Source: Candidatus Levyibacteriota bacterium (GTDB lineage Bacteria; Patescibacteriota; Microgenomatia; Levybacterales; UBA12049). From it: 64,000 nt of DNA. Where the stretch lies: assembly GCA_016214555.1 (NCBI GenBank), contig JACROF010000016.1, positions 633-64,632 on the forward strand. The letters run 5' to 3'. Positions 4,155 to 45,278 of the stretch are shown piece by piece (the stretch's first letter is position 1; the number at the start of each line of letters is the position of its first letter). The notes beneath the pieces are model-generated. The model did not search any database. It was given only the letters and a program-made list of their open reading frames with translations, and was not told where the DNA came from. A program made the position numbers and the translations under genes.

Positions 4155-4170
4155 TTATTCTTACCTCTTT

Positions 4171-5832
4171 TTATGACTTTCGTTTTCCTGTGTAGTGCTC
4201 GAAGCCTCTCTCATACCTTCCATAATTACTATCTCCTAAGAATCTATTGATAAAACCCCTTTTTCGTATTCTTGTAGCCCATGTGCCCGCACGACCTTTA
4301 TGGGGATCAAATTCAAATGATCTCTTTATGTATGCTCGTGGACCGGCAAGTGCTGGAGCAAATCCTCTGCCAAATCCTCCCTGTATAGCGCCGCTGACCA
4401 ATTTGTTAGGTTCTGAGTGGAATGTCTGGCGAGTGATAGTGAGGACTTCAGGAGTAATAAGAAGAATGGCAACAACAAGGACTCCTTGAATATGATTGGT
4501 GATTGCTGGGTTTCCAATAAGTGGAGGGAGATAGTAGGTGCCAGCAGGAGCAGTAGCGTTATTAAGATCATAGGTTGGGATAGTAGAGACAACGCGTGCT
4601 GCGACAAAGAAAAATGCTGTCACAGGGAAAACAGATAAATGGGCGAGCATATATCTAAGCCATGCAGTAAAACCATATTTGCTTCCGGGGATAAGCCCTG
4701 CTCCAATATAAAGTGGGGCAAGCATAGTCCCAATGAGAGTGTAGGCATAAGCTCGAAGGAGCGCAAACCATAACCTCACCATAGCATAAAGGAGAGCAAA
4801 AAGGATAACAACTGTAAAAAGTATATCTGCAATAACCTTGACAATTCCATGGAGAATTGATTGAGCACATGATCCAAGTGTGTTCCAAAAATCTGCAGAG
4901 CAATTTCCGTCTTTGAGATCTAAAGTTTCGGTGATGGTATCAGCAATAATATTTCCAATAGTCCCACCCGCGTCAATTGAGGTGCCTGTAATACCATCGA
5001 AGCTTCCCTGGCATCCTGTTGAGTTCCCAAATAACTCATTGAGGTAGACAATGGGGTTGTTGAGAAGTTGGCGATTGGCTGCTGCTTTGATAGCTTCGCT
5101 TTGATGAGTTTCAAGAGACGTAAGGTTGTTAGGATCTTGAGGATCGGTGCAACTTACTTTATCCGGGACTAAAATACTGATGCCGGTATAGGTGCTAAAC
5201 CACATCGCGTCCACCAAAAGACCTGCTATAGAAAAAGAAAACGTAATAAAAATAAGCGTGAGGACAATTTTGGGAAGTTGATTTTGGATAGACATTACAG
5301 TCTGGGGATTTATCTTAACTCTTAGCATAATGCCCATGCCTATAAAGACAAAAAGAAGGACCATCGCAACAAAGGTGATATTGCGAAGCTTAAGCCACAT
5401 CTCTTGAAGTGGGCTTAATTTATCAAAGCCTGTATTTTGAGCGTAAGTTTGTTTGGCTATGCCAAAATTGTTGGCAAAATATTTCATCGACTCAGACGTT
5501 GAGACTGGTTTTTGATACATAAAACCAATCATATTAGTCATTGTCCCGACAACACCGCCTATTTTTTGCTGAGAAGGAGCGGTCTCTAAATTTCCTGAGG
5601 CAGGGTTAATGCCTACGCATTCTGCTTGAGGATTGACGATATCGATTCCAGACAAAAAACATCCAATGGCAGAGCTCATATTGATGAGAATTTTTTGCAT
5701 GTCAACGCTGGTTGAGGTGGAGGTGGGCACAAGTGAGGTCTGTGCGTAGATTGGTGATGCGGTTCTACCTTGTACAGCAAAAAACACAAGAAGAAGCATG
5801 ATGCATGAAATGATTTTTATGGGCAGTCGCAT
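4171..5832 (-). CDS. polytopic membrane protein with N-terminal signal/anchor, ~110-aa extracytoplasmic segment, 6-7 TM helices and basic C-terminal tail; VirB6/TrbL-like topology (weak inference)
   Basis: hydrophobic segments IISCIMLLLVFFAV, ITFVAMVLLFVFIGMGIML, IVLTLIFITFSFSIAGLLV, ILFTVVILFALLYAMVRLWF, LIGTMLAPLYIGAGLI, VFPVTAFFFVAARVV, VLVVAILLITPEVL; convergent with the 1010-aa ORF. Confidence 0.6.
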   Translation of the reverse strand: MRLPIKIISCIMLLLVFFAVQGRTASPIYAQTSLVPTSTSTSVDMQKILINMSSAIGCFLSGIDIVNPQAECVGINPASGNLETAPSQQKIGGVVGTMTNMIGFMYQKPVSTSESMKYFANNFGIAKQTYAQNTGFDKLSPLQEMWLKLRNITFVAMVLLFVFIGMGIMLRVKINPQTVMSIQNQLPKIVLTLIFITFSFSIAGLLVDAMWFSTYTGISILVPDKVSCTDPQDPNNLTSLETHQSEAIKAAANRQLLNNPIVYLNELFGNSTGCQGSFDGITGTSIDAGGTIGNIIADTITETLDLKDGNCSADFWNTLGSCAQSILHGIVKVIADILFTVVILFALLYAMVRLWFALLRAYAYTLIGTMLAPLYIGAGLIPGSKYGFTAWLRYMLAHLSVFPVTAFFFVAARVVSTIPTYDLNNATAPAGTYYLPPLIGNPAITNHIQGVLVVAILLITPEVLTITRQTFHSEPNKLVSGAIQGGFGRGFAPALAGPRAYIKRSFEFDPHKGRAGTWATRIRKRGFINRFLGDSNYGRYERGFEHYTGKRKS

Positions 5833-5989: not shown

Positions 5990-6358
5990 TTATCGGGCTT
6001 CTCTGATGAGAGCCAGTTGGTATGTAGCCCGTAGCATAAGTACAAGCAAAGTGAACCCAAGTCCTCCCTTGAGCATATACGATGAGAGTGTGGGGTCGAA
6101 TTTCTCAACATAGATTGATCCAATGGCGACAAATATGCCAAAGCCCCATAGATTTTTGATCGAAATCCAGAGCAATGGAAGAAAACCCTTCCATACTAGC
6201 TTGAGACTAAGAATAAAGAGCCATATGGCAAAGGTAAAACAGAACGTTAGCACCCATTCAATAATGCCATCAGCTGAAGGGGCTTCGTATCTTGTTACTG
6301 AAAACGAGTCAATAAAGCCTCCTTCATTATCACGAATTTCGTAATGCTTGGTAGGCAT
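5990..6358 (-). CDS. small 3-TM membrane protein, paralog A (MPTKHYEIRDNEGGFIDSFSV...)
   Basis: ORF; N-terminal 20 aa and ~50 nt nearly identical to the neighbouring paralog. Confidence 0.6.
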   Translation of the reverse strand: MPTKHYEIRDNEGGFIDSFSVTRYEAPSADGIIEWVLTFCFTFAIWLFILSLKLVWKGFLPLLWISIKNLWGFGIFVAIGSIYVEKFDPTLSSYMLKGGLGFTLLVLMLRATYQLALIREAR

Positions 6359-14160: not shown

Positions 14161-14259
14161 ATGATGTTTTTTGGTGTCGCGTCAAACGCGATCACCGCGT
14201 CAATTATAACAAAAAACGCGACCTCCTCTTCTTGCGAAGAGCGAAGCCGCGTTTGACGC

Positions 14260-14672
14260 GGTGGAGATGTCCGGGTGTGATCCGGAGTCCGAAAAAGTGT
14301 CTTACTAACATCTACAAGCGTAGTTGATTATTTTTGTGTCGCTTTCCCGTGGCCAGTCAACAGGTATAAGAAAGTCTACGTTTTAAAAATCTGGTATCAC
14401 ACAAAACGAGATGTGATCCTTGACCCAACTGTTTTATGCTCATAATGTCCCGTTGGGAAAGACATCATAAACATTCCTTAGTGCTTAAGCTAGTGCGTAA
14501 GCGGGTCGGAAACCTCCAAGGTTAGAGAGTTCTGCCAAAATGGCGTCACGCTCTGCCTTCAAGGCTGAAATGCTGTTTTTAGCATTTATTTTTGATCTTC
14601 TTTTTACGACTTAAAGATCAGCGTCGGCTTGCAGTTATTAAGGTACTATATCCGTCGAATCAAATCATCCCC
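14260..14672 (-). ncRNA. ssrA: tmRNA (ssrA), ~413 nt; tag reading frame ends ...GGFRPAYALA-UAA
   Basis: 5' end GGGGAUGAUUUGAUUCGACGG resembles E. coli GGGGCUGAUUCUGGAUUCGACGG; 3' end GGACUCCGGAUCACACCCGGACAUCUCCACC resembles GGACGCGGGUUCAACUCCCGCCAGCUCCACCA; lies in an ORF-free gap directly downstream of smpB. Confidence 0.8.
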
Positions 14673-34928: not shown

Positions 34929-35021
34929 AGTTTTCACAACAGTATTGTAAGAATTTCACAAGATCTGAGGCTATGGTTTCCCGAAAAATTGCCGTGATAT
35001 AGATAGATATATTTTTCAGTA

Positions 35022-35051
35022 TTGACATTGATACTGGTAGAGCCATATAGT
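35022..35051 (+). promoter_or_regulatory. sigma70-like promoter (TTGACA-N17/18-TATAGT) for nrdR-nrdJ
   Basis: perfect -35 hexamer, near-consensus -10. Confidence 0.5.
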
Positions 35052-35057
35052 TTTTTA

Positions 35058-35096
35058 GGACACTACATATAAATTATTTCATAATGAAATGTAGTT
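35058..35096 (+). promoter_or_regulatory. NrdR-box-like palindrome (acaCTACATATaa...ATGTAGtt) between promoter and nrdR
   Basis: CTACAT/ATGTAG inverted arms; 12/16 match to the NrdR box consensus acaCwAtATaTwGtgt. Confidence 0.35.
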
Positions 35097-35120
35097 CTAT
35101 AGGAGCCTGAGGAGAATAAT

Positions 35121-35570
35121 ATGCATTGTCCCTATTGCGGGAGTAGAGAATCAGAAGTTGTTGAGACAAGGGACAGTGAAGATATGGACGCCATTAGGCG
35201 TCGCCGAGCATGTCACATATGCGAGAGGAGATTTACTACCTATGAGCGAATCGAGACGGTAAATCTGCTGGTTATAAAAAAAGACGGAAGACGAGAGCAG
35301 TTCAATAGAGATAAGTTAAAAGCGGGATTGATCAGGGCGTGTGAGAAAACAACGATTTCTGTTGATGAGATAGATAGAATTATTACCGAGGTAATTCATG
35401 AATTACGAGGAGGAGATTCGGTTGAAGTGCGAAGCGAGCTGATTGGGCAATTGGTTGCAGACGAGTTGAAGAAACTTAACAAAATTGCCTATATTCGATT
35501 TTCAAGTGTTTTCAAAAGATTTGTAGATGTTGAGGATTTTGAAAACGAAGTTAAAAAATTAATACACTAA
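35121..35570 (+). CDS. nrdR: transcriptional repressor NrdR
   Basis: MHCPYCGSRESEVVETRDSED... zinc ribbon plus ATP-cone. Confidence 0.9.
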   Translation: MHCPYCGSRESEVVETRDSEDMDAIRRRRACHICERRFTTYERIETVNLLVIKKDGRREQFNRDKLKAGLIRACEKTTISVDEIDRIITEVIHELRGGDSVEVRSELIGQLVADELKKLNKIAYIRFSSVFKRFVDVEDFENEVKKLIH

Positions 35571-35577
35571 ACTATAT

Positions 35578-38028
35578 ATGGCTGTACAATTAGACGGGAT
35601 TAGACAAAAAGTATTCTTAGATCGTTATGCCTTAAAAGATAAGGAAGGTTCTCTTATTGAGAAAACTCCTGAGGAGATGTGGAAAAGAGTGGCAAAGGGA
35701 ATTGCTGCAAATGAAAAAAAAGCCGACCAAAAGAAGTGGGAGAGAGAGTTTTATAAGGCTATGGAAGGGTTCAAATTTGTCCCTGCTGGCAGAATCCTTT
35801 CTGGTGCTGGCACAGAATATCAGGTAACGTATTTTAATTGTTTTGTCATACCAAGCCCCAAAGACTCACGACATGGTATCTTAGAAGCATTAGGTCAGCT
35901 TGTTGAAATCCAGGCAAGATCTGGTGGAGTCGGACTCAATCTTTCATCGCTTCGTCCAAAAGGAGCAAGGGTTAAAAAAGTCAACGGAACCTCAAGTGGA
36001 CCTGTTAACTGGGCAACTCTTTTTTCTGTTGCGACACATGATATTGTTCAACAGGGTGGGTCTCGCAGGGGAGCAACAATGCTTATGCTTTGGGATTGGC
36101 ACCCAGACGTTGAGGAGTTTATTACCGTTAAAGAGGATCTCAGTAAGATCAACGGAGCAAATCTTTCTGTTTGTGTCTCAGATGCCTTTATGGAAGCTGT
36201 CAAAAAAGACGCTGATTGGGATCTTGTTTATCCTGATATCACCGATCCTGAATATGATGAAAAATGGGATGGTGAGATCGATAAATGGAGAGCGTTGGGA
36301 AAAAATGTTATTGTCTACAAAACGATCAAGGCTCGTTATCTTTGGGATCTCATCTGCACTGCTGCATGGAGAAGCGCTGAGCCAGGGCTTCATTTTATGG
36401 AGCGTTCCAACAAAAGAAGTAACACCTATTACTTTGAGCGCTTGATTGCAACCAATCCTTGTGGAGAGCAGCCGCTTGGCGCATGGGCTGTTTGTAACTT
36501 GGGGGCAATGAATCTTGCAGCGTATGTTAATGACGAAAAATTTGATTTTGAGTCATTTGGAAATGACGTTCGTGTAGCAATGCGCATGCTTGACAATGTT
36601 ATCGATCAGACTTACTACTTCTTTAAAGAAAATGAGGTATGCGCAAAAGATATTCGTCGAACTGGACTTGGCATTATGGGACTTGGGGATGCGCTTATTA
36701 AAATGATGCTTCCCTATGGCTCTGAAAAATCTATTCCTGTTATCGAAAAAATCTTTCAGACGCTTCGAGATAATGCATATGATGCATCAGCAGATCTGGC
36801 AAAAGAAAAAGGAGCGTTCCCTCATTTTGAGAAAGATAAGTATCTTGACGCCCATTTTGTTAAGCAACTTCCTCGTGCAATTAGGAAAAAAATTAGCGAG
36901 CAGGGTATACGAAACGCGGTACTTTTGACGATCGCTCCTACAGGAACAACATCTCTTGTCTCAGGTGTTTCAAGCGGCATTGAGCCAGTCTACGAATTTA
37001 GTTTTCGTCGAAAATGGAGAGGTGGAGAAGAGATTATGTACCATCCATTATTTGATGAATGGAGAAAGACACATGAAGGAGAAGATAGACCTGATTATTT
37101 CGTCTCAGCAAATGACTTAACCCCCATGGAACATGTCAGAGTCCAGGCTGTTGCACAGGAATATATTGATTCCTCAATATCAAAAACAGTTAATGCTCCT
37201 AATGCACACACTGTGCAAGATGTAAAAGATCTTTATATGTTTGCTTATGATTATGGTCTTAAAGGCATTACGTATATGCGCGATGGTTCTCGTATGGGGG
37301 TACTGGAGAGACTTCCTGAGAAAAAAGAGGAAGTTAAGGAAGAAAAGCCAGTTGTTCCTGTCACGCCACGCGTTCCTCGTCCGATGGTTCTTGCGGGAAC
37401 AACCTATAAAGCAGACAGTCCAATTGGACGCATGTATGTTACGATCAACCACGACGAAACCAATCAGCCATTTGAAGTCTTTATCAACAACGGCAAATCA
37501 GGTTCAGATGTTATGGCTATGGCTGATGCTTTAGGACGAATGATATCTTTTGTCCTTCGTATCCACAGTACTGTTCCTCGTCGTGAAAGGATGCGTGAGA
37601 TTGTTTCAGAGTTAACAGGTATTGGTGGGGCTCGAAGCGTGGGATTTGGAGAGAACAGAGTCAGATCCCTTCCCGATGCTGTTGCTAAAGTGCTTGCGCG
37701 ACATAGCAATTTTAGAGTGAATGGAAAAGTTGAAGATAAACCCGTCGAGCCGGTAGCAGCGGATGTTTCTCCAGAGGCAAGTGGTGATGCTTTAGCAAAT
37801 GGCAACGGAAATGGTCACGCAACAAAAGGACAGGTATCATTCTTGACAAAAGTTGATCAAGTAGAGACTCAAGGAGAGCAGCTTGGATTTGCAGCAGCAA
37901 CAGTGCCTGCTGAGGCAATGCATACCAATACTAATCTTTTTGATATTTGTCCTGAGTGTGGCGCTGCGAGTTTTGCTTATGAAGAAGGTTGCAAAAAATG
38001 CTATGGCTGTGGCTATAGCGAATGTTAG
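35578..38028 (+). CDS. nrdJ: adenosylcobalamin-dependent (class II) ribonucleotide reductase
   Basis: TNPCGEQPL active-site motif; C-terminal CPECG...CKKCYGCG zinc ribbon. Confidence 0.85.
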   Translation: MAVQLDGIRQKVFLDRYALKDKEGSLIEKTPEEMWKRVAKGIAANEKKADQKKWEREFYKAMEGFKFVPAGRILSGAGTEYQVTYFNCFVIPSPKDSRHGILEALGQLVEIQARSGGVGLNLSSLRPKGARVKKVNGTSSGPVNWATLFSVATHDIVQQGGSRRGATMLMLWDWHPDVEEFITVKEDLSKINGANLSVCVSDAFMEAVKKDADWDLVYPDITDPEYDEKWDGEIDKWRALGKNVIVYKTIKARYLWDLICTAAWRSAEPGLHFMERSNKRSNTYYFERLIATNPCGEQPLGAWAVCNLGAMNLAAYVNDEKFDFESFGNDVRVAMRMLDNVIDQTYYFFKENEVCAKDIRRTGLGIMGLGDALIKMMLPYGSEKSIPVIEKIFQTLRDNAYDASADLAKEKGAFPHFEKDKYLDAHFVKQLPRAIRKKISEQGIRNAVLLTIAPTGTTSLVSGVSSGIEPVYEFSFRRKWRGGEEIMYHPLFDEWRKTHEGEDRPDYFVSANDLTPMEHVRVQAVAQEYIDSSISKTVNAPNAHTVQDVKDLYMFAYDYGLKGITYMRDGSRMGVLERLPEKKEEVKEEKPVVPVTPRVPRPMVLAGTTYKADSPIGRMYVTINHDETNQPFEVFINNGKSGSDVMAMADALGRMISFVLRIHSTVPRRERMREIVSELTGIGGARSVGFGENRVRSLPDAVAKVLARHSNFRVNGKVEDKPVEPVAADVSPEASGDALANGNGNGHATKGQVSFLTKVDQVETQGEQLGFAAATVPAEAMHTNTNLFDICPECGAASFAYEEGCKKCYGCGYSEC

Positions 38029-38084
38029 TTGCTTTTTGCAATTAAAAGATTTATAAGATAAAACAAAACAACAACTATATCGGA

Positions 38085-38221
38085 AATCATGGTGACTCGA
38101 TCAAGTCAAGCGGGAATTCCATGGCTATGCCGTAACTGTACAGTCAGAAAACGATATATTTGTAATATTCTCCCGAGCAGGAATTCTTGTTAGATCCTTC
38201 TTGGGAAAGAAGGATTTTTTT
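38085..38221 (+). promoter_or_regulatory. candidate cobalamin riboswitch with terminator expression platform (CCTTCTT-ggga-AAGAAGG-TTTTTTT at 38196-38221) abutting the downstream ATG
   Basis: GGUG...GCGGGAAUUCC...GCCGUAACUGUA resembles B12-element blocks; intrinsic terminator directly before the start codon; genomic context is a B12 module. Confidence 0.4.
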
Positions 38222-38644
38222 ATGGTAAATAAAGACAAAAAACGAGTGGATTTAACGCCAATAAGGCGGTTAAAACTTTCTCTTCTGAGCGGATTTCTTT
38301 TTGTGATTATTATTGGTGTGATGTTTACTTTTTCACACAAGGTTTATGAGTCCGGTACTCACACAAATCAAAAAATATCTGAATATAGTCAAAAAGTGTC
38401 TGAAAGAGACTATTTTTCCTACCAGGGGACAAATGGGAAAGATGCTTTGGAAATGCTGCAAAAATTAACCAATGTCCAACAAGACAGTTCAGGTCTTGTC
38501 ATTTCAATTAATGGACGAAGAGCCCTATCTGATAAAAGAGAATATTGGTCATTTTTTGTTAATGTAAAAATGGCTGAAGTTGGTACTGCTGAATACCAGA
38601 CAAGCGATAAAGATTTTATTGAGTGGAGAATTCAAAAATATTAA
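38222..38644 (+). CDS. membrane-anchored protein; a B12-binding/uptake role is inferred from context only
   Basis: TM LSLLSGFLFVIIIGVMF; start placed at ATG 38222 because the TTG at 38201 lies inside the terminator hairpin. Confidence 0.45.
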   Translation: MVNKDKKRVDLTPIRRLKLSLLSGFLFVIIIGVMFTFSHKVYESGTHTNQKISEYSQKVSERDYFSYQGTNGKDALEMLQKLTNVQQDSSGLVISINGRRALSDKREYWSFFVNVKMAEVGTAEYQTSDKDFIEWRIQKY

Positions 38645-39165
38645 TGCGAGATTCAATTCTTTTCCCAATTTTTATTATTTTTCTTGGCGGTCTCATGCGA
38701 CTTGTGCCTCATGTTCCTAATTTCGCACCAATTACTGCAATAGCTCTTTTTGGAGGGATGTATATGAATAGGAAGTATGCTCTCATCTTGCCATTTATTA
38801 TTATGGTTATCTCAGATTTTTTTCTTGGTTTTCATGACACGCTAGTGTTTGTTTATGGAAGCTTTTTAATTTCTGGCTTACTAGGTCTTGGAGTAAGAGA
38901 GTATAAAACAGCGGGCCGAATTTTATTGATCACCATAGCAGCTTCAATACAATTTTTTATTATCACAAATCTTGGTGTTTTTCTTGCAGGACATATCTAC
39001 CCAAAAACAATACAAGGATTTATCGACTGCTATGTCATGGCCTTGCCATTTTTTCGCAATACTATTGTTGGTGATGTTTTGTTTACAACTTCGTTTATTC
39101 TCGCTTTTGAACTTCTAAAACAACTTGCTCACAAAGTAAAGCCTGCCTTAGTAAAGGAAAAATAA
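38644..39165 (+). CDS. 5-6 TM membrane protein, ECF-transporter S-component-like (putative vitamin uptake)
   Basis: size and topology; translationally coupled (ATG overlaps the upstream TAA). Confidence 0.4.
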   Translation: MRDSILFPIFIIFLGGLMRLVPHVPNFAPITAIALFGGMYMNRKYALILPFIIMVISDFFLGFHDTLVFVYGSFLISGLLGLGVREYKTAGRILLITIAASIQFFIITNLGVFLAGHIYPKTIQGFIDCYVMALPFFRNTIVGDVLFTTSFILAFELLKQLAHKVKPALVKEK

Positions 39166-39734
39166 TGCCGATATATACACGACGAGGAGACAAAGGACAA
39201 ACATCGCTTTTTGGAGGAACACGCGTTCTTAAATCAGACGAAAGGGTTGATACCTACGGGACTATCGATGAGCTCAATAGTCTTGTGGGGGTTGTTGTTG
39301 CACATATTGAAAATAGGCATAAAAAATTGGCGTCTTTTTTAGAGAGTATTCAGCATGATCTTTTTGATATCGGATCGTATCTTGCCAACCCCAAGGCGCT
39401 TCCCGTCAAAAGGCTTGAAGATAGAGTAGAGTTATTTGAAAAAGAGATTGATCACATGACAGAAAGAATGCCAGAGTTGCATAATTTTATTCTTCCAGGA
39501 GGAGGAAGGGTGGGGGCGAGCCTTCATCAGGCTAGGACTGTTTGTCGACGAACAGAAAGAAGGCTTGTTGCTCTTATCCAAAAAGAAGAAGTTGATGAGA
39601 CTGTTGTGAAATATGTTAATAGACTTTCGGATTTACTTTTTACGATGGCTCGTTTTGTCAATCACAAAGAAAAGAAAAAAGAAACAAAGTGGACTCGCCT
39701 CGATTCAATCGAGCCGAAGCTGGTTAAACAATAA
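39165..39734 (+). CDS. ATP:cob(I)alamin adenosyltransferase, PduO type
   Basis: MPIYTRRGDKGQTSLFGG N-terminal signature. Confidence 0.8.
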   Translation: MPIYTRRGDKGQTSLFGGTRVLKSDERVDTYGTIDELNSLVGVVVAHIENRHKKLASFLESIQHDLFDIGSYLANPKALPVKRLEDRVELFEKEIDHMTERMPELHNFILPGGGRVGASLHQARTVCRRTERRLVALIQKEEVDETVVKYVNRLSDLLFTMARFVNHKEKKKETKWTRLDSIEPKLVKQ

Positions 39735-39919
39735 TATCGGGTGAATCCTGTGCCCCGCATCGACTCAAATCGAGGCGAGAATTCAGGGCTGTGCCGCAAC
39801 TGTCCTTCGACAAGCTCAGGATAAATTTTTCTGAATTGTTTAGAGGGAAAAGTCAGATCCCCGTTGCCATCTTCCGAGCAGAAGGACATTTTTTGTACTC
39901 CTCGGAAAGGAGTTTTTTT

Positions 39920-41347
39920 ATGGAACGATTATCAACACTTAGTCATGTAATTAAAAAAGAAGCAGCAGCTCGCGTTGCTGGATCAGTACTGTCTTTGTCG
40001 GGGGGGTATAGTGATATGGCTTCAGATATTGCTTCACCTGCTCCTATTATCCGACTAGAGCAGGATGGAGGATTGCAGCGTTATCAGCAGGAGTTTGCAA
40101 ATATCTATGAGATCAGGCGTGATTTTGATAGTGCCCTCAATATAGATACGAGCTACAGACTTTTATCCTGGGATGCTGTTAAATCTCGTAATCGATTTGA
40201 ACAGTGTAGAGACAAAAGAGAGCAGTATGGCTGGCTAAAAAATGAATACAAAGATATCGCAAGCACTCTTCGTGAGCGCTATAACTGTCTTGAGAGCCCA
40301 ATGGATTTTTTTCTGGGTGAAGATGGCAATCTTTACAACAGTGAATTTCCAGCAGAGCCAATACTTACCATTATTGAGCGAGGAGTTTTGTATCAGGAGG
40401 CGCAGGGATCTCAAGAGATTGAGAGAGAGCGAAGCGAACTTATAGGCATTAGCAAAGTCCAGGAATATTTTGCCGACAAAGCAACAGAGATTGGCTCAAC
40501 CATGCTTCTTTTTTCACCACCAGGAACAGTCACAGGAAGTCCTTATGTTAAAAAATTTGTTGATAAATATGTACTAAGCGAAGATCCTGTGACAGGAAAA
40601 AGAATTGTGACGGGAAAGCGATACTCGACCATTATGTCATATCAAGAGTATCAAGATGCGGTTCTCTCGCTTGATCCTGTCTATTTTGACGATGAAGAAG
40701 GGACAATAGATGCTATTCTGCTTCGGAAGCCAATAAAGCTTGAAGGATTTGAGAATCACGAGAGGTTATTGGAGCAAATATTATCTTTTGATCCTGATGC
40801 ATTAACAGGATATGAGTTTGCGATTGTGGATATGATATGTGAACCGATAAAGCCACTTTTAATTGATGCGATAGTCAATTGGAATCCTAAAACAATCGCG
40901 CATATATTTAATACACTTTTGCATATTGGTGATGAGGCAAATGCTTTAGTAAGACAAGGTGATGTTGAAGGTATTAAAGCGATGTTGGTATGGAGTAGGA
41001 GTCTTGACCAAGAAAAGGCGGAGAAAGAGGTTGGGAGAAGAGGAAATCTTCCAATTGAGGTATTAGCTGTTGGTTGTGGTGATTCTGGTGGATTTTTTGA
41101 TAATAGTGTTGGACAGTTTGGTATAGCACCAGAAAATGACCCCAATTTGTGTAGATGTCAGGGAGCAAAGCCTCATTTTCATTGTGGAGGAAGCATCGAA
41201 CAGGCTGTAAAAGATGAAGATGGAAATGTTATCTATGATGAAACAGGAAAAGAAAAGATAGAAGAAATAACGTGCCAATTTAAAGTAATTGTCGGACATG
41301 GAGTAAAAAAATGTCCTGAGTGTGGTCGAGGCGCAGTCTGCGCCTAA
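39920..41347 (+). CDS. hypothetical 475-aa protein with C-terminal Cys clusters (CRCQ...HFHCGG, CPECGRG); SD AAGGAG
   Basis: ORF; start at ATG 39920 after AAAGGAG; the track ORF's upstream extension is discounted. Confidence 0.55.
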   Translation: MERLSTLSHVIKKEAAARVAGSVLSLSGGYSDMASDIASPAPIIRLEQDGGLQRYQQEFANIYEIRRDFDSALNIDTSYRLLSWDAVKSRNRFEQCRDKREQYGWLKNEYKDIASTLRERYNCLESPMDFFLGEDGNLYNSEFPAEPILTIIERGVLYQEAQGSQEIERERSELIGISKVQEYFADKATEIGSTMLLFSPPGTVTGSPYVKKFVDKYVLSEDPVTGKRIVTGKRYSTIMSYQEYQDAVLSLDPVYFDDEEGTIDAILLRKPIKLEGFENHERLLEQILSFDPDALTGYEFAIVDMICEPIKPLLIDAIVNWNPKTIAHIFNTLLHIGDEANALVRQGDVEGIKAMLVWSRSLDQEKAEKEVGRRGNLPIEVLAVGCGDSGGFFDNSVGQFGIAPENDPNLCRCQGAKPHFHCGGSIEQAVKDEDGNVIYDETGKEKIEEITCQFKVIVGHGVKKCPECGRGAVCA

Positions 41348-41918: not shown

Positions 41919-44276
41919 ATGGAAATACAGTCATTACTTATTACGTTTTTTGGAGGTATTTTTCTTATCGCTTTAATAGTACTTGTTCTTCTTGCGATAG
42001 GGTATATGGTGTTGTTGTGGATGAGGAACAAAGGGCGTGAGGCTGAGTCGCTTAGTTCGGTATTAATGCAGGTATCATTGCCTCGAGATAATGAGATTAA
42101 AATTGATGCAGCAGAGCAATTATTTGCGAGCCTTGCATCGCTTCGAAAATCAAAGAGATTAGATTATTTTAGTAGACAGCCACACGTTTCATTTGAAATT
42201 GTAGGCACCCCAGGCGATGTAAGGTTTTATATCAATGTCCCCATAAAGTTAAAAGATTTTATTGAGAAACAGATTAATGGATCATATCCAGACGCAGAAA
42301 TTGTTCAAGTAAATGATCCTGCTGCTAAGCAAAAAGAAAATGCGACAATTGCAGGTGAATACAATATTTTTTCCGATGCAGGAAAGGTTGCTTTTGCTTC
42401 CTTATCCCTTAAGCACGATGATTTTAAGCCGATCAAAGTCTTCAAAGACTTAGCCGTTGATTCGATGGCATCGGTTACATCTGTTCTTGCCAAAATGGGT
42501 GAAGGAGAAGGCGCTGCAATTCAGATACTTATTCAACCTGCAAATCCAAGATGGAAAGAGTCGGGGAAAGCATATCTTTCTAAGACAAAAAAGAATGAGT
42601 CAAATCCTGAGACCGCAAAGTACTCCTCTGATGCAAAAGAGCTTGAGGCGATCGAGAATAAACTGAGTAAACCTGGGTTTAACACAATAGTTCGACTTGT
42701 GGTTTCTTCAAGCTCCAAAGAAGCAGCAGATGCACATTTGAGCAATCTTATCGGTTCGTTTTCTCAGTACTCAGGAGTAAACATGTTTGGGAAAAATAAA
42801 CACTGGCTTAAAGGTCTTTTTGTTACTGATTTCATCTATCGCTATTTCCCTATGAGAGGACACACATCTGTCTTGACAAGTGATGAGCTAGCTACCATTT
42901 TTCATTTTCCTAATAAAAGTGTTCAAACGCCAGGAATTCATTGGGTGACCTCAAAAAGAGCTCCAGCTCCGGCAAGTATCCCAACTGAAGGGCTCTACCT
43001 TGGCAAGAGCACATTTCGAGGCATTAGTCGGCCTGTCTTTATTCAGGAATCAGATAGACAACGACATATGTATATCATTGGGAAAACTGGTACCGGAAAG
43101 TCAGAATTTCTCAAGCAATCTATCATGCAGGATATCAAAAATGGGGAAGGACTAGCAGTTATCGATCCTCATGGTGATTTAATTGAAGATATTCTTCAGC
43201 TTATGCCCCCTGAGAGGTCTGAGGATGTTATTCTTTTTGATCCATCTGATCTTGAACAACCGCTTGGTTTTAATATGCTTGAGGCTCAAAACGAGCAGCA
43301 GAGACATTTGGTTGTGACATCAGTTATTGGACTTATGTACAAACTATTTGATCCTAACAAAACGGGAATTATTGGACCTCGATTTGAACACGCTGTTAGG
43401 AATGCGATGCTTACGTGTATGTATCAGCCTGGAGCTACTTTTATGGAGGTAGTTCGCGCCCTCACTGACCCCGCTTTCGTCCAGGAGCTTTTGCCACGAG
43501 TTGAAGACCCTGTTATCAGAAGATATTGGACAGATCAGATTGCTCAGACGAGTGATTTTCACAAATCTGAAGTGCTTGATTATATCGTTTCAAAATTTGG
43601 TCGTTTTGTTACCAATAAAATGATTAGAAACATCATAGGTCAGTCAGAAAGTGCTTTTAATTTTAGAGAGGCGATGGATACCAAAAAGATTCTTCTTATC
43701 AATCTTTCAAAAGGAAAAATTGGCGAAGAGAACTCAAGCTTTTTGGGGCTCATTCTTGTGCCAAAGATTTTGGTTGCTGCAATGTCGCGACAGGATATGC
43801 CTATGGAAGATCGCAAGAACTTCTTCCTTTATGTTGACGAGTTTCAGAATTTTGCTACACCTGATTTTGCCCAAATTCTTTCAGAGGCTCGAAAATATCG
43901 CCTTAATTTGATCGTTGCCAATCAGTTTGTTGGACAGATGGAGGAGGAGGTCAAGAATGCTATTTTTGGAAACGTAGGAACAATTGCCGCTTTTCGAGTA
44001 GGTGTTACTGATGCCAATTATCTTCAGCACGAGTTTCAGCCTGTTTTTACGGAGGCCGATTTGATAAATATAGATAGATTTAATTGTTATATGAGGACTA
44101 TTGTTGGTGGCGAGCCTGTCCCTCCTTTTTCACTCGACACGACAAAGGATGTCGAGGCTGAAAAAAGGATGCGTGATCCTCGAGTTGCAGAGCTTGTCAA
44201 AGAATTGTCTCGTCTTAAGTATGGTCGTAATGCACAGATTGTCGAGGCTGAGATTGCTCAACGGTCGCGACTTTAA
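41919..44276 (+). CDS. membrane-anchored P-loop ATPase of the HerA/VirB4/VirD4 (T4SS-type, DUF87-like) clade
   Basis: N-terminal TM ITFFGGIFLIALIVLVLLAIGYMVLLW; Walker A IIGKTGTGKS at ~aa 388; VIDPHGDL; Walker B LYVDEFQNF about 250 aa later. Confidence 0.7.
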   Translation: MEIQSLLITFFGGIFLIALIVLVLLAIGYMVLLWMRNKGREAESLSSVLMQVSLPRDNEIKIDAAEQLFASLASLRKSKRLDYFSRQPHVSFEIVGTPGDVRFYINVPIKLKDFIEKQINGSYPDAEIVQVNDPAAKQKENATIAGEYNIFSDAGKVAFASLSLKHDDFKPIKVFKDLAVDSMASVTSVLAKMGEGEGAAIQILIQPANPRWKESGKAYLSKTKKNESNPETAKYSSDAKELEAIENKLSKPGFNTIVRLVVSSSSKEAADAHLSNLIGSFSQYSGVNMFGKNKHWLKGLFVTDFIYRYFPMRGHTSVLTSDELATIFHFPNKSVQTPGIHWVTSKRAPAPASIPTEGLYLGKSTFRGISRPVFIQESDRQRHMYIIGKTGTGKSEFLKQSIMQDIKNGEGLAVIDPHGDLIEDILQLMPPERSEDVILFDPSDLEQPLGFNMLEAQNEQQRHLVVTSVIGLMYKLFDPNKTGIIGPRFEHAVRNAMLTCMYQPGATFMEVVRALTDPAFVQELLPRVEDPVIRRYWTDQIAQTSDFHKSEVLDYIVSKFGRFVTNKMIRNIIGQSESAFNFREAMDTKKILLINLSKGKIGEENSSFLGLILVPKILVAAMSRQDMPMEDRKNFFLYVDEFQNFATPDFAQILSEARKYRLNLIVANQFVGQMEEEVKNAIFGNVGTIAAFRVGVTDANYLQHEFQPVFTEADLINIDRFNCYMRTIVGGEPVPPFSLDTTKDVEAEKRMRDPRVAELVKELSRLKYGRNAQIVEAEIAQRSRL

Positions 44277-44339
44277 CCTTCATTTCAGAAGTTCTTTCTG
44301 CTACAATCGTGCTATTCGTTTTGTGCTTTGTGGAGTTTT

Positions 44340-44411
44340 GGGTGTGTAGCTCAGTGGTAGAGCGCTATCCTTATAAGATAGATGTCCTTGGTTCGATCCC
44401 AAGCACACCCA
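44340..44411 (+). tRNA. tRNA-Ile with anticodon TAT (UAU)
   Basis: GGGTGTGTAGCTCAGTGGTAGAGCGCTATCCTTATAAGATAGATGTCCTTGGTTCGATCCCAAGCACACCCA; anticodon loop cuUAUaa. Confidence 0.75.
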
Positions 44412-44417
44412 CAAAGA

Positions 44418-45278
44418 TTAGAGCTCAGAGAGAGAAGAAGTGTCTTTTGCGCGGTCTTTTACGTACTCCAAATATCTTTCAGTTGTTGAAATTCTCTTGT
44501 GACCAAGAATCTTTGAAAGAAGGACAAGCGACACACCGTGTTTGAGGTGGTGTGCTACAAAGGTGTGGCGAAGATCATTTACTTTAGCATTCTCAATCTC
44601 AGCGATTCTGAAATATCTCTCAATTGCTGTTCTAATATTACGTACAAGAAATGGTTTTCCTGATTTGGTAATAAAGACGTGGTCGTCTGTGACTTGTGGC
44701 CGGATCTTAAGATATGCATTTAAAGCCTCTTTACTTGGATGATTAAGCGGAACAACTCTCTCTTCATGTTTTTCGTAAGGCCTAATTGAGAGATTGCCAT
44801 CTTTAATATCAGAAAGGCGAAGCTCAGCGAGTTCACCAATACGGATGCCTGTCTGGAGAAGAAGTTCAATAATAGCAAACATGCGTGCGTCGTGACGAGC
44901 TGCATCGCGAAGAGCTCGATATTCAGTAGGTTTAAGAATTCGAGGTGGTGCAAGTTCATAGCGTGGATGTGAGACAAGTAGGGATGGATCATCAGTAATC
45001 ATCTCATTTACCTTAAGAAACCTATAAAACGTTCGTGTTGAGTTAAGCTTTCGAGAAAGAGATTTTGGCGTATAGCCTTTTTCTGACATTTTAGCCAAAA
45101 AAGCCTGAATATCATCTGAGCTCACGTCATGAACATGATGCTTGTCCATCTCCTCAAGAAATGAAGCTAACTGATCAATGTCTTTTCCGTATGCTAGAAT
45201 AGTGCTACTGGAGTGCTTCTTCCCTTTAAGAAAATCAATAAATTTTTGGTGGGCATTTCGTATCGTTGTTGGTTGCAT
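44418..45278 (-). CDS. tyrosine site-specific recombinase (XerC/XerD-size; integrase family)
   Basis: N-terminal SAM-like core-binding domain; C-terminal R...H..R...Y catalytic pattern (LRHTFVAHHL...GHKRISTTERYL). Confidence 0.85.
   Translation of the reverse strand: MQPTTIRNAHQKFIDFLKGKKHSSSTILAYGKDIDQLASFLEEMDKHHVHDVSSDDIQAFLAKMSEKGYTPKSLSRKLNSTRTFYRFLKVNEMITDDPSLLVSHPRYELAPPRILKPTEYRALRDAARHDARMFAIIELLLQTGIRIGELAELRLSDIKDGNLSIRPYEKHEERVVPLNHPSKEALNAYLKIRPQVTDDHVFITKSGKPFLVRNIRTAIERYFRIAEIENAKVNDLRHTFVAHHLKHGVSLVLLSKILGHKRISTTERYLEYVKDRAKDTSSLSEL

Follow-up and report, generated by a model that had tools for sequence, protein, structure and literature searches.

The nrdR-nrdJ genes described here, together with the genes that follow them in a 64-kb window (the whole stretch of DNA that was analyzed), very probably form a riboswitch-gated module by which a B12-auxotrophic bacterium with a tiny genome (CPR, Levybacteria) salvages and uses cobalamin. 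This reading is based on family assignments, covariation in the RNA and in its kissing loop, alternative pairings, synteny, and riboswitch linkage. All of the genes lie on the forward strand, in the order nrdR, nrdJ, riboswitch 1, DUF4430 gene, DUF6580 gene, pduO, riboswitch 2, and a gene for a 475-amino-acid (475-aa) protein, and the order from nrdR to pduO is common to approximately 25 related CPR loci. The original prediction for this DNA had described a coherent B12 module; each component that it listed was located, and its interpretation was largely right. Riboswitch 2 and its target gene were absent from that prediction and are new.

The nrdR, nrdJ, and pduO genes and the nrdR-nrdJ promoter

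The product of nrdJ (positions 35578 to 38028) is an adenosylcobalamin-dependent class II ribonucleotide reductase (RNR), as had been predicted. It scores 591.7 bits with TIGR02504 (NrdJ_Z), above the NCBIfam equivalog cut-off of 399.95, matches PF02867, PF00317, and PF12637, and carries a TSCPD domain and a Cys-rich C-terminal tail. Upstream of it lies nrdR (35121 to 35570), encoding the ATP-cone/zinc-ribbon repressor of RNR genes (TIGR00244, 3e-55, 186 bits against a cut-off of 125; PF22811 and PF03477). The PduO-type ATP:cob(I)alamin adenosyltransferase proposed further downstream (39165 to 39734) was borne out by matches to TIGR00636 (2e-59, 200 bits against an NCBIfam equivalog-domain cut-off of 108.45) and PF01923 (5.5e-62). 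The DUF4430 and DUF6580 genes have a one-base stop/start overlap (TAATG at 38642 to 38646), in agreement with the translational coupling suggested for this pair, and the DUF6580 gene and pduO share base 39165. Among the 30 other large open reading frames (ORFs) within the 64-kb window, none encodes an RNR, a cob gene product, an ABC ATPase, or EcfT.

The nrdR-nrdJ genes are preceded by a sigma-70-type promoter at 35022 to 35051 (TTGACA at 35022 to 35027, an 18-nt spacer, and TATAGT at 35046 to 35051). It agrees with the consensus at 11 of 12 positions, in keeping with the near-consensus promoter noted before, and is the best promoter-like site between 34800 and 41500; relatives have the same arrangement of TTGAC and a -10 element 5' of nrdR. 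A palindrome resembling NrdR boxes had also been noted here. The inverted repeat itself, CTACAT (35063 to 35068) with ATGTAG (35089 to 35094), is present, but there is only a single degenerate NrdR box, ACACTACATATAAATT at 35060 to 35075, which starts 8 nt past the -10 hexamer and agrees with the consensus acaCwAtATaTwGtgt at 12 of 16 positions. The distal arm, ATGTAGT at 35089 to 35095, pairs with ACTACAT at 35062 to 35068 but lies outside the canonical box and is not a canonical element. The box scores 8.2 bits with the PWM, ranking 10th among approximately 64,000 window positions and below all 23 training boxes, and no credible partner is found between 34990 and 35110, where the next best site scores -0.1. 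NrdR regulon operators, as reportedly described by Rodionov and Gelfand in 2005, are tandem 16-bp NrdR boxes. Relatives carry two NrdR boxes 31 to 34 bp apart that overlap the nrdR promoter; a two-box operator (16-bp palindromes ~31 to 32 bp apart at the promoter) is thus seen in them and not in the window, where the consensus is recognizable in one box instead of a tandem pair. The window box sits where relatives carry box 2 and has lost its right half, and the closest relative (L002) has CTAAAT...ATTTAG at the place of the inverted repeat.

Cobalamin riboswitches and their expression platforms

The aptamer of cobalamin riboswitch 1 spans 38065 to 38162. A candidate riboswitch had been predicted here, and covariance models do score it, with 37.6 bits for RF01689 (AdoCbl-II; cobalamin riboswitch clan CL00101) against a gathering score of 36.5 (full-length match to positions 1 to 81; E value of 2.7e-5 for the whole window), a margin of just 1.1 bits. 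However, it belongs with the AdoCbl-II variant and not with the classic RF00174, and it starts at 38065 and not at 38085. The B12-element-like blocks named before, GGTG, GCGGGAATTCC, and GCCGTAACTGTA, were located within 38091 to 38140. The aptamer is class II-like without a P6 extension, with L5 (UGCCG) at 38128 to 38132 and a lineage-specific insert of ~19 nt in L4, and scores 70.7 bits with R1, its own lineage-specific covariance model. This model found 46 riboswitch homologues, in which 95.8% of helix cells are paired versus 31 to 44% in slid controls, and 10 of 14 pairs in the P3-P6 four-way junction show double changes (147 double-change cells), counts that are inflated by the fitting of the alignment (A5, 46 homologues) to the model. 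The covariation score of the family was matched by none of 500 shuffles. More than 25 relatives have a homologous element where riboswitch 1 lies, and each of the four helices shows compensatory changes.

The aptamer is followed, after a J1/13 linker of 8 nt, by the mini-hairpin P13 (UCC-CGAGCA-GGA, 38171 to 38182), whose loop L13 (38174 to 38179) complements L5 with one bulged A. A hairpin with an L13-type loop and a covarying stem is present in 43 of the 46 homologues, and in most of them L5 UGCCG complements L13 CG(N)GCA, giving five potential pairs and one bulge. The two loops vary together, UCCCG occurring with CGG(UC)GA in four sequences and GGCCG with CGAGCC in one. Most homologues bulge out one nucleotide, which can be A, U, or C, and a minority bulge out UC; a nucleotide bulged from L13 is known to be characteristic of the kissing loops in cobalamin riboswitches (PMC5028336). 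Next comes a terminator or Shine-Dalgarno (SD)-sequestering hairpin (38192 to 38221), with 11 bp at 38192 to 38217 followed by U7 up to the ATG at 38222, which matches the predicted intrinsic terminator with a U run ending at the start codon; its 3' arm holds the SD sequence AAGGA (38210 to 38214). A hairpin and U run abutting AUG are found in 25 of 43 homologues. The SD sequence of relatives lies either in the 3' arm of P13 or in the second hairpin.

This platform has an alternative pairing, in which CUUGGGA (38200 to 38206) complements UCCCGAG (38171 to 38177; P = 0.023 versus shuffles), and the two conformers are nearly isoenergetic, with -14.8 kcal/mol for P13 plus the terminator versus -16.9 kcal/mol for the anti-terminator. 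Anti-terminator complementarity reaches a P value of ≤0.05 in 18 of 43 homologues versus ~2 expected, with shuffles that keep mononucleotide content only, and the paired segments covary (CCCGAG/CUCGGG, UUCCGAG/CUCGGAA, and UCUCGAG/CUCGAGA).

Riboswitch 2, which follows pduO, repeats this design. Its aptamer (~39738 to 39863) was identified with R1 (match at 39723 to 39869, 28.2 bits, E value of ~1e-4), while no Rfam model matched it even at an E value of ≤10. It has P3 CGGG/CCCG, L5 UGCCG at 39792 to 39796, the L4 insert, and a P6 loop enlarged by a hairpin of ~45 nt, within which lies the repeat CCTTCGACAAGCTCAGGAT (39804 to 39822). Six relatives have riboswitches at the corresponding position that align with it, and their P6-extension stems covary. 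The expression platform (39870 to 39919) consists of P13 (UCUUC-CGAGCA-GAAGG, 39870 to 39885) followed by U6 and of a hairpin (ACUCCU-CGGAA-AGGAGU, 39897 to 39913) that has the SD sequence AGGAG in its 3' arm and is followed by U7 and ATG. Here, UUCCGAG (39872 to 39878) complements CUCGGAA (39901 to 39907; P = 0.013 versus shuffles), and the anti-terminator is the minimum-free-energy fold (-11.6 kcal/mol versus -9.5 kcal/mol for P13 plus the terminator).

From these features we infer that cobalamin is the ligand and that its binding turns the genes off. A strong promoter, accompanied by no more than a degenerate NrdR site, would drive nrdR-nrdJ, yielding the AdoCbl-dependent RNR, and riboswitch 1, just past nrdJ, would act as a conditional stop. 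Since the scan for promoter-like sites revealed no evident one in the interval from nrdJ to riboswitch 1, the genes behind the riboswitch are presumably cotranscribed with nrdJ. With cobalamin bound, L5 (UGCCG) would kiss L13 (CGAGCA, with one bulged A) of the weak, 3-bp P13 and tie up UCCCGAG, so that the 11-bp hairpin could form, transcription would end at the U7 tract by the start codon, and the SD sequence AAGGA would be buried. At low B12 levels, UCCCGAG would instead pair with a segment of this hairpin, CUUGGGA, that spans parts of its 5' arm and its loop, and the resulting anti-terminator would turn on the three coupled genes. Riboswitch 2, with the same platform design, would gate the 475-aa protein of the same regulon.

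Two other interpretations of these elements need to be considered. Riboswitch 1 could be a false positive in AT-rich intergenic DNA, with the hairpin and T run serving as a constitutive nrdR-nrdJ terminator; the Rfam score barely exceeds the threshold of a short, 81-position model, and a textbook intrinsic terminator does stand directly 3' of nrdJ. We find this hardly credible in view of the score with the lineage model, the compensatory changes in same-position homologues, the covariation of L5 with L13, the conserved anti-terminator complementarity, and the recurrence of the same design before the next gene. Alternatively, the switches could be purely translational, acting through SD sequestration, with the U runs being incidental AT-rich spacers between SD and AUG. 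Both hairpins in the window do carry the SD sequence in the 3' arm, with the U run being exactly the SD-AUG spacer, an AUG lies ≤12 nt from P13 in 13 of 43 relatives with no need for a second hairpin (some of these may be chance AUGs), and env8, a known switch of class II, acts on translation (PMC5028336). We consider exclusive translational control unlikely, however, as an 11-bp stem that includes GC pairs and runs into U7 is consistent with an intrinsic terminator and a U tract lies directly 3' of P13 in 11 of 43 relatives. Termination and SD sequestration are compatible modes and do not exclude one another.

Similar to the class II riboswitches (RF01689, env8HyCbl) studied by Johnson in 2012 and Polaski in 2016 (PMC5028336), the elements described here have a compact four-way junction without a large P6 domain, an L5-L13 kissing loop with unpaired nucleotide(s), and a short J1/13. 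They differ in the sequences of the kissing loops (UGCCG with CGAGCA in the window) and in their second hairpin, which also serves as an intrinsic terminator and is opposed by a conserved anti-terminator pairing. In the AdoCbl-variant family, two bulged purines in L13 and a ribosome-binding site (RBS) inside L13 are reported to be strictly conserved (PMC5028336), whereas here L13 has one bulge and the RBS lies outside L13, in the 3' arm of P13 or in the second hairpin. We class riboswitch 1 as a variant because it lacks the two-purine bulge and the RBS within L13.

The DUF4430 and DUF6580 proteins

The first gene behind riboswitch 1 (38222 to 38644) encodes a 140-aa protein (MBI5045300.1), a gene call that was confirmed, with a membrane anchor and an extracytoplasmic DUF4430 domain. 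The match to PF14478 (residues 74 to 138; 2e-10, 41.3 bits versus the Pfam gathering score of 23.8) and the N-terminal transmembrane anchor agree with the predicted membrane-anchored protein of the DUF4430 family. BtuG is a beta-propeller and probably distinct from DUF4430; the known counterpart here is CbrS, which the analysis showed to be a DUF4430 protein, and the window protein aligns with the proteins at the CbrS position in a Lactobacillus-type locus (L081). The DUF4430 domain is found at the C terminus of transcobalamins (PMC4350170). In a sequence search, a DUF4430 profile of 20 homologues matched none of the solved B12 binders. The protein is thus a putative CbrS-like factor that would capture extracellular cobalamin.

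The next gene (38644 to 39165) encodes a 173-aa DUF6580 membrane protein (MBI5045301.1; PF20221, 2e-46, 158.8 bits) and putative cobalamin carrier. A 5-6-TM protein of S-component size had been predicted; the AF2 model has six helices (pLDDT of 90.5), and the protein appears to resemble ECF S components and to be a remote homologue of CbrT. The highest-probability Foldseek matches in the PDB are the S components PanT (0.98) and FolT (0.97), matches that are weak (E values of ≥0.09; TM scores of 0.45 to 0.58). The sole match of a DUF6580 profile in an hmmsearch against the PDB is CbrT (6fnp_A), a weak match with an E value of 0.03, and hhalign aligns the DUF6580 and CbrT profiles over 98 columns with a probability of 84.8% (E value of 6.5e-6). 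The two share the motifs R-x4-PN-x-P-T and S-D/N-x2-LGF, and some DUF6580 members also match PF12822, all of which suggests a distant relationship between DUF6580 and CbrT, the S component for B12. In CPR loci, the gene has a CbrT-like context, flanked by DUF4430 and adenosyltransferase genes with an AdoCbl enzyme close by. In non-CPR loci (Bacteroidota, Ignavibacteriota, and Omnitrophota), RF00174 lies upstream on the same strand in 21 of 25 cases and is adjacent in 24 of 25, and Gram-negative operons include TonB-dependent receptors and either a DUF5074 propeller or a BtuF-like Peripla_BP_2 protein. Among the 10 neighboring ORFs scanned at four Bacteroidota/Ignavibacteriota DUF6580 loci, no ABC permease or ATPase was found.

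Both the transport substrate and the mode of energizing transport we infer from these contexts. The DUF6580 protein would move cobalamin across the membrane, and PduO would adenosylate it for NrdJ. B12 riboswitches in other bacteria also control cobalt and precursor transporters, and DUF6580 might therefore be B12 regulated and yet carry cobalt, as does the S-component-like CbiM, only cobinamide, or a lower-ligand base; CbrT itself takes cobinamide as well (PMC5997447). This is very unlikely given the position of the CPR gene between DUF4430 and adenosyltransferase genes and beside an AdoCbl enzyme, the lack of cob genes among the 30 large window ORFs, and the BtuB-like receptors and BtuF-like binding protein of the Gram-negative operons, which point to whole corrinoids rather than cobalt. 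It is somewhat doubtful, although quite conceivable, that DUF6580 is a conventional group II ECF S component that needs an EcfA-A'-T module encoded elsewhere and not a solitary, BtuM-like carrier. The probable remote homology to CbrT, the PF12822 matches, and the finding that solitary CbrT gives no uptake (PMC5997447) speak for such a dependence; the absence of an ABC ATPase or EcfT both among 30 large ORFs of the window and beside DUF6580 in the four Bacteroidota/Ignavibacteriota operons speaks against it, as does the precedent of BtuM, an S-component-like B12 carrier that works alone (PMC6072759). ECF dependence is a subhypothesis on energization that is compatible with cobalamin import as the main explanation.

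Known cobalamin systems, the 475-aa protein, and significance

The locus is the CPR counterpart of the nrdJ-cbrS-cbrT-pduO cluster of Lactobacillus delbrueckii, which was predicted by Rodionov in 2009 and studied by Santos et al. in 2018 (PMC5997447; PDB 6FNP), with ECF-CbrT being a proven Cbl/Cbi transporter (PMC5997447). The neighborhood of a CbrT homologue was seen to contain NrdJ, two DUF4430 genes, a PF12822 S component, and Cob_adeno_trans. Both clusters combine, in the same order, a B12-dependent RNR, DUF4430 protein(s), a small membrane carrier (putative and with six predicted helices in the window), and PduO, and B12 auxotrophy of the host is established for the published cluster and probable for this one. 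Unlike the Lactobacillus cluster, the window has a putative carrier of DUF6580 (PF20221) and not one of PF12822/PF07155, includes nrdR, and shows no ECF module among its 30 other large ORFs. Its RNR is of the NrdJ_Z type with TSCPD, whereas the Lactobacillus-type enzyme, which we take to be monomeric, has RNR_Alpha and RNR-II_ins_dom. A further difference is that a cobalamin riboswitch precedes the uptake genes of the window, while L081 gave no match to an Rfam riboswitch.

A second system of relevance is BtuM from Thiobacillus denitrificans (Rempel et al. 2018, PMC6072759), a small S-component-like protein that works without an ECF module and was predicted from colocalization with btuB in organisms lacking BtuCDF (PMC6072759). 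Gram-negative DUF6580 contexts look the same. However, the DUF6580 profile had no PDB match to BtuM at an E value of ≤10, and BtuM was absent from the top 50 Foldseek matches. BtuM has a cysteine ligand and decyanation chemistry, and DUF6580 may differ in these, having an invariant His23 instead.

Riboswitch 2 precedes a gene (39920 to 41347) for a 475-aa cytoplasmic protein with a C-terminal zinc ribbon (MBI5045303.1), a candidate member of the B12 regulon. Its protein family has 308 cluster representatives among 1.84 billion proteins, and the 46 members that were searched gave no match to any Pfam or NCBIfam family. In related loci, a riboswitch lies directly upstream in 10 of 12 cases and the remaining 2 genes directly follow pduO; all 12 members found thus seem to be under B12 riboswitch control. 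There is a nearly even prospect that the 475-aa protein founds an undescribed family that is a dedicated CPR cobalamin-handling part and that, jointly, DUF6580 is a widespread ECF-independent B12 permease. If so, the 475-aa protein could be, e.g., a corrinoid reductase, a beta-ligand-removing enzyme, an NrdJ-loading chaperone, or a B12-sparing backup, and DUF6580 would fill a gap in the many B12 auxotrophs without BtuCDF, whether these have BtuB or no such component at all.

How auxotrophs without BtuCDF import B12 is an open question for a large share of bacteria (PMC6072759). The linkage of DUF6580 to riboswitches in CPR, Bacteroidota, Ignavibacteriota, and Omnitrophota offers a concrete importer candidate for such organisms. 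Both CbrT and BtuM have been assayed in the delta-FEC strain of E. coli (delta-btuF/delta-metE/delta-btuC), which lacks ECF modules. At gathering score, Rfam models found 9 of the 17 lineage riboswitches in 11 compared loci, and riboswitch-based reconstruction of CPR regulons is therefore likely incomplete; this lineage has its own cobalamin riboswitch variant. The riboswitch-controlled 475-aa protein points to undescribed cobalamin biochemistry. Taken together, this suggests that these ultrasmall, host- or community-dependent cells wire DNA precursor synthesis to scavenged B12.

The B12 module and its operator

The original prediction described a B12 module in which nrdR and nrdJ are followed by a cobalamin riboswitch, a putative B12 capture and transport pair and an adenosyltransferase gene. 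All of its sequence details were found in the window; the finding is real and the overall reading is supported. nrdR (35121-35570, + strand; TIGR00244, 3e-55) and nrdJ (35578-38028, +; TIGR02504, 591.7 bits against a cut-off of 400, with a TSCPD domain) precede genes for a 140-aa protein with an N-terminal membrane anchor and a DUF4430 domain (38222-38644, +; MBI5045300.1), a 173-aa DUF6580 protein (38644-39165, +; MBI5045301.1) and a PduO-type adenosyltransferase (39165-39734, +). NCBI gene calls agree for the three small genes (MBI5045300.1, MBI5045301.1 and MBI5045303.1). The DUF6580 protein shares 100% identity with one encoded in a Candidatus Levybacteria assembly. One-base overlaps join the DUF4430, DUF6580 and pduO genes, which are therefore taken to be translationally coupled, and the order nrdR-nrdJ-DUF4430-DUF6580-pduO is kept in approximately 25 loci of Patescibacteria (CPR). 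Within this 64-kb window, none of the 30 largest other open reading frames encodes a ribonucleotide reductase, a cob gene product, an ABC ATPase or EcfT. In two Levybacteria relatives, nrdJ falls into two halves that align well but lie about 1.06 kb apart (L009, 1166-2044 and 3107-4753; L036, 2149-3027 and 4087-5559), which looks like an intein or other insertion.

In the relatives, canonical tandem NrdR boxes lie 31 to 34 bp apart, with box 1 overlapping the -35/-10 spacer and box 2 located just past the -10 element. The window retains the second box only (ACACTACATATAAATT, 35060-75, 12/16 matches). With a position weight matrix trained on 23 boxes of relatives, this box scores 8.2 bits, below every training box and at rank 10 in the window, and the matrix finds no partner box in the operator region. 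Since its position, 8 nt past the -10 element, is conserved with the relatives, the box has probably decayed or is weak. The CTACAT...ATGTAG palindrome that had been likened to NrdR boxes could not be upheld as a pair of them: a box-like 16-mer, itself not significant by the matrix alone, covers the proximal arm only, and the distal ATGTAG arm falls outside any box. At this position the closest relative carries CTAAAT...ATTTAG.

Directly downstream of the module are genes for a TrwB/HerA-like coupling ATPase (41919-44276), a tRNA (44340-44411) and a tyrosine integrase (44418-45278); this region (41919-45278) possibly marks where an integrated element borders the module. The window also carries a tmRNA gene (14259-14672, - strand; RF00023, 118 bits) and nine scattered tRNA genes.

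Two riboswitches and their expression platform

Between nrdJ and the DUF4430 gene, riboswitch 1 matches the Rfam AdoCbl-II model (RF01689) over its full length at 38065-38162, with 37.6 bits against a threshold of 36.5. Because this margin is thin, relatives were collected, and a DUF6580 protein profile was used to retrieve 80 genome loci as a comparison set. RF01689 matches are present in many of the related CPR loci, and nine of them served to build a lineage-specific covariance model, with which riboswitch 1 reaches 70.7 bits and which finds 46 elements across 35 CPR sources. In the alignment of these elements, standard pairs occupy 95.8% of cells, compared to 31 to 44% with slid partners, double changes occur at 10 of 14 pairs (147 cells), and the observed covariation score was reached by 0 of 500 shuffles; these numbers lean toward structure because the alignment was fitted to the model, but the contrast is large enough to leave little doubt about the riboswitch structure. 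Rfam catches 9 of the 17 elements that our model finds in the same 11 loci, and the variant of this lineage is thus underdetected. Many metagenome-assembled records that contain the CPR-type cluster at 60 to 85% protein identity (among them L001, L002, L004, L008 and L010) are titled "uncultured Gammaproteobacteria"; these assemblies are probably mislabelled.

A mini-hairpin, P13, directly follows the aptamer in 43 of the 46 elements. Its 3- to 6-bp stem covaries (UCC/GGA, CUUC/GAAG, CUG/CAG, and CUU/AAG), and its loop, CG(N)GCA, is complementary to the near-invariant aptamer loop L5, UGCCG, through five pairs and one bulged nucleotide. L5 UCCCG (four sequences) goes with the loop CGG(UC)GA and L5 GGCCG with CGAGCC, so that the two sides of a tertiary contact have changed in a compensatory manner. 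In cobalamin riboswitches, a kissing loop between L5 and L13 couples ligand binding to regulation, and L13 always leaves one or more nucleotides unpaired (PMC5028336); the contact in the CPR elements matches this known kissing loop.

In riboswitch 1, downstream of P13 (UCC-CGAGCA-GGA; 38171-38182, +), there is an 11-bp hairpin (38192-38217, +) with the Shine-Dalgarno sequence AAGGA in its 3' arm and a U7 run that ends at the ATG at 38222. UCCCGAG, which covers the 5' arm of P13 and the beginning of its loop, is complementary to CUUGGGA in the 5' arm and loop of this hairpin. By mononucleotide shuffles, 18 of 43 elements show significant complementarity of this kind at a P value of ≤0.05 (~2 expected) and 13 do so at a P value of ≤0.01 (~0.4 expected), and the anti-terminator pairing covaries (CCCGAG/CUCGGG, UUCCGAG/CUCGGAA, and UCUCGAG/CUCGAGA). 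The computed conformers of riboswitch 1 are near-isoenergetic (-14.8 versus -16.9 kcal/mol), and the computed ground state of riboswitch 2 is the anti-terminator (-11.6 versus -9.5). The predicted mode is that of an OFF switch, in which ligand and kissing loop would lock P13, so that the terminator/sequestor would form and the uptake genes would remain silent. No convincing promoter was found between nrdJ and the riboswitch 1 aptamer, and in relatives the aptamer can start ~10 nt past nrdJ; we therefore infer that riboswitch 1 acts as a conditional terminator of the nrdR-nrdJ transcript. An 8-bp duplex around the palindromic GAATTC is also possible between GGGAATTCC (38112-38120), within the L4 insert, and AGGAATTCT (38180-38188), at the P13 3' arm; no counterpart was seen in riboswitch 2.

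Riboswitch 2, between pduO and the next open reading frame, matches our model at 39723-39869 with 28.2 bits, and an Rfam search of 39650-40000 at an E value of ≤10 gave no match for it; it was accepted only once the match to our model had been examined visually and aligned to elements of relatives. Its core is complete (P3 CGGG/CCCG, the invariant GCUGUGCCGCAACUGU, and AAGUCAG) and its platform is the same as that of riboswitch 1, with P13 UCUUC-CGAGCA-GAAGG, a hairpin, ACUCCU-CGGAA-AGGAGU, that holds the Shine-Dalgarno sequence in its 3' arm, then U7 and the ATG at 39920, and UUCCGAG complementary to CUCGGAA. It aligns with same-position elements in six relatives, where the P6-loop hairpins covary. 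Core elements, platform and relatives together support a real riboswitch here. The P6 insert was considered as a class I peripheral domain and rejected, as it is a simple variable hairpin with a short dispersed repeat. This repeat (CCTTCGACAAGCTCAGGAT, 39804-39822) has related copies in L014 (199-214), L016 (5600-5615, -) and L023 (7274-7289), in either orientation and within hairpin loops of riboswitch platforms, and here encodes the "FDKLR" and "PELVEG" peptides of spurious open reading frames; a small insertion element in dispersed copies is a possible explanation.

Proteins under predicted riboswitch control

The DUF4430 domain is known as the C terminus of transcobalamins (PMC4350170). 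In the window protein it is preceded by a positively charged N terminus and one transmembrane helix, and the domain should therefore face outward. A DUF4430 profile search against the PDB did not find a B12 binder.

The DUF6580 protein is confidently modelled with six helices (pLDDT, 90.5). The top-probability PDB neighbours of the model are the ECF S components PanT, FolT, RibU and ThiT, with weak E values and TM scores of 0.45 to 0.58. The only PDB sequence match of the DUF6580 profile is 6FNP chain A, from the vitamin B12 transporter ECF-CbrT (PMC5997447). Profile-profile comparison with CbrT homologues gave 84.8% probability (E value, 6.5e-6), and several DUF6580 proteins also match PF12822. 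In 25 non-CPR loci (Bacteroidota, Ignavibacteriota and Omnitrophota), a classic cobalamin riboswitch (RF00174) lies upstream of DUF6580 on the same strand in 21 and adjacent in 24, which provides independent support for the proposed role. Operon partners there are TonB-dependent receptors, a DUF5074 propeller or a binding protein of BtuF type; the 10 neighbouring open reading frames scanned in 4 of these loci included neither an ABC permease nor an ABC ATPase. In several Bacteroidota loci (L032, L033, L024, L040, L043, L045, L060, L063 and L039), DUF6580, at about position 6001, is a single-gene unit with a classic cobalamin riboswitch on both sides, the second controlling an operon of TonB-dependent receptor and DUF5074 propeller.

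Riboswitch 2 precedes a gene for a 475-aa protein (39920-41347, +; MBI5045303.1, with the start as called by NCBI); a GTG start at 39791 in a mechanical listing was rejected, as it lies inside the aptamer. None of 46 family members has a Pfam or NCBIfam match, and profile searches of the PDB gave no similarity beyond a generic zinc ribbon at the C terminus. AF2 modelled the protein with low confidence (pLDDT, 64), and a fold search with this model was uninformative (best matches PAS-like, probability ≤0.41). In a set of 1.84 billion proteins, the family accounts for 308 cluster representatives. Of its 12 genes in the compared loci, 10 have a riboswitch directly upstream and the other 2 directly follow pduO within the riboswitch 1 operon; by this placement, the protein belongs consistently to the B12 regulon. 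Before the homologue in L011, two riboswitch matches (4155-4231 and 4297-4388) lie 66 nt apart, a possible tandem arrangement.

Relation to known cobalamin systems

In Lactobacillus, cbrT sits in an nrdJ-cbrS-cbrT-pduO cluster (PMC5997447). The locus of a CbrT homologue holds NrdJ, two DUF4430 genes, a PF12822 gene and Cob_adeno_trans, and, given the published order, CbrS therefore corresponds to DUF4430. The window thus carries the CPR counterpart of this known cluster, with the difference that its putative carrier belongs to another family, DUF6580. The non-CPR setting of DUF6580, with no ABC genes in the neighbourhoods scanned, is similar to that of BtuM, an S-component-like B12 carrier that works alone (PMC6072759), but DUF6580 shows no similarity to BtuM; membership in that family was rejected, with no sequence match and no BtuM among the top 50 fold matches. 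We found no relevant literature on DUF6580, on Patescibacteria cobalamin riboswitches, or on cobalamin and ribonucleotide reductase in CPR. In a Daviesbacteria assembly, a CPR-type riboswitch (L048, 2560-2633, -) precedes a 495-aa protein whose N terminus (MVQGTASGVGKS...) looks by eye like cobyric acid synthase CobQ, which, if true, would be unexpected for a supposedly nonsynthesising lineage.

Taken together, the module represents a known arrangement in a lineage-specific form and not a new kind of system. To that arrangement it adds a cobalamin riboswitch variant, specific to CPR, whose platform has two tiers, a prediction of DUF6580 function that is valid across phyla, and a riboswitch-controlled family of unknown proteins.
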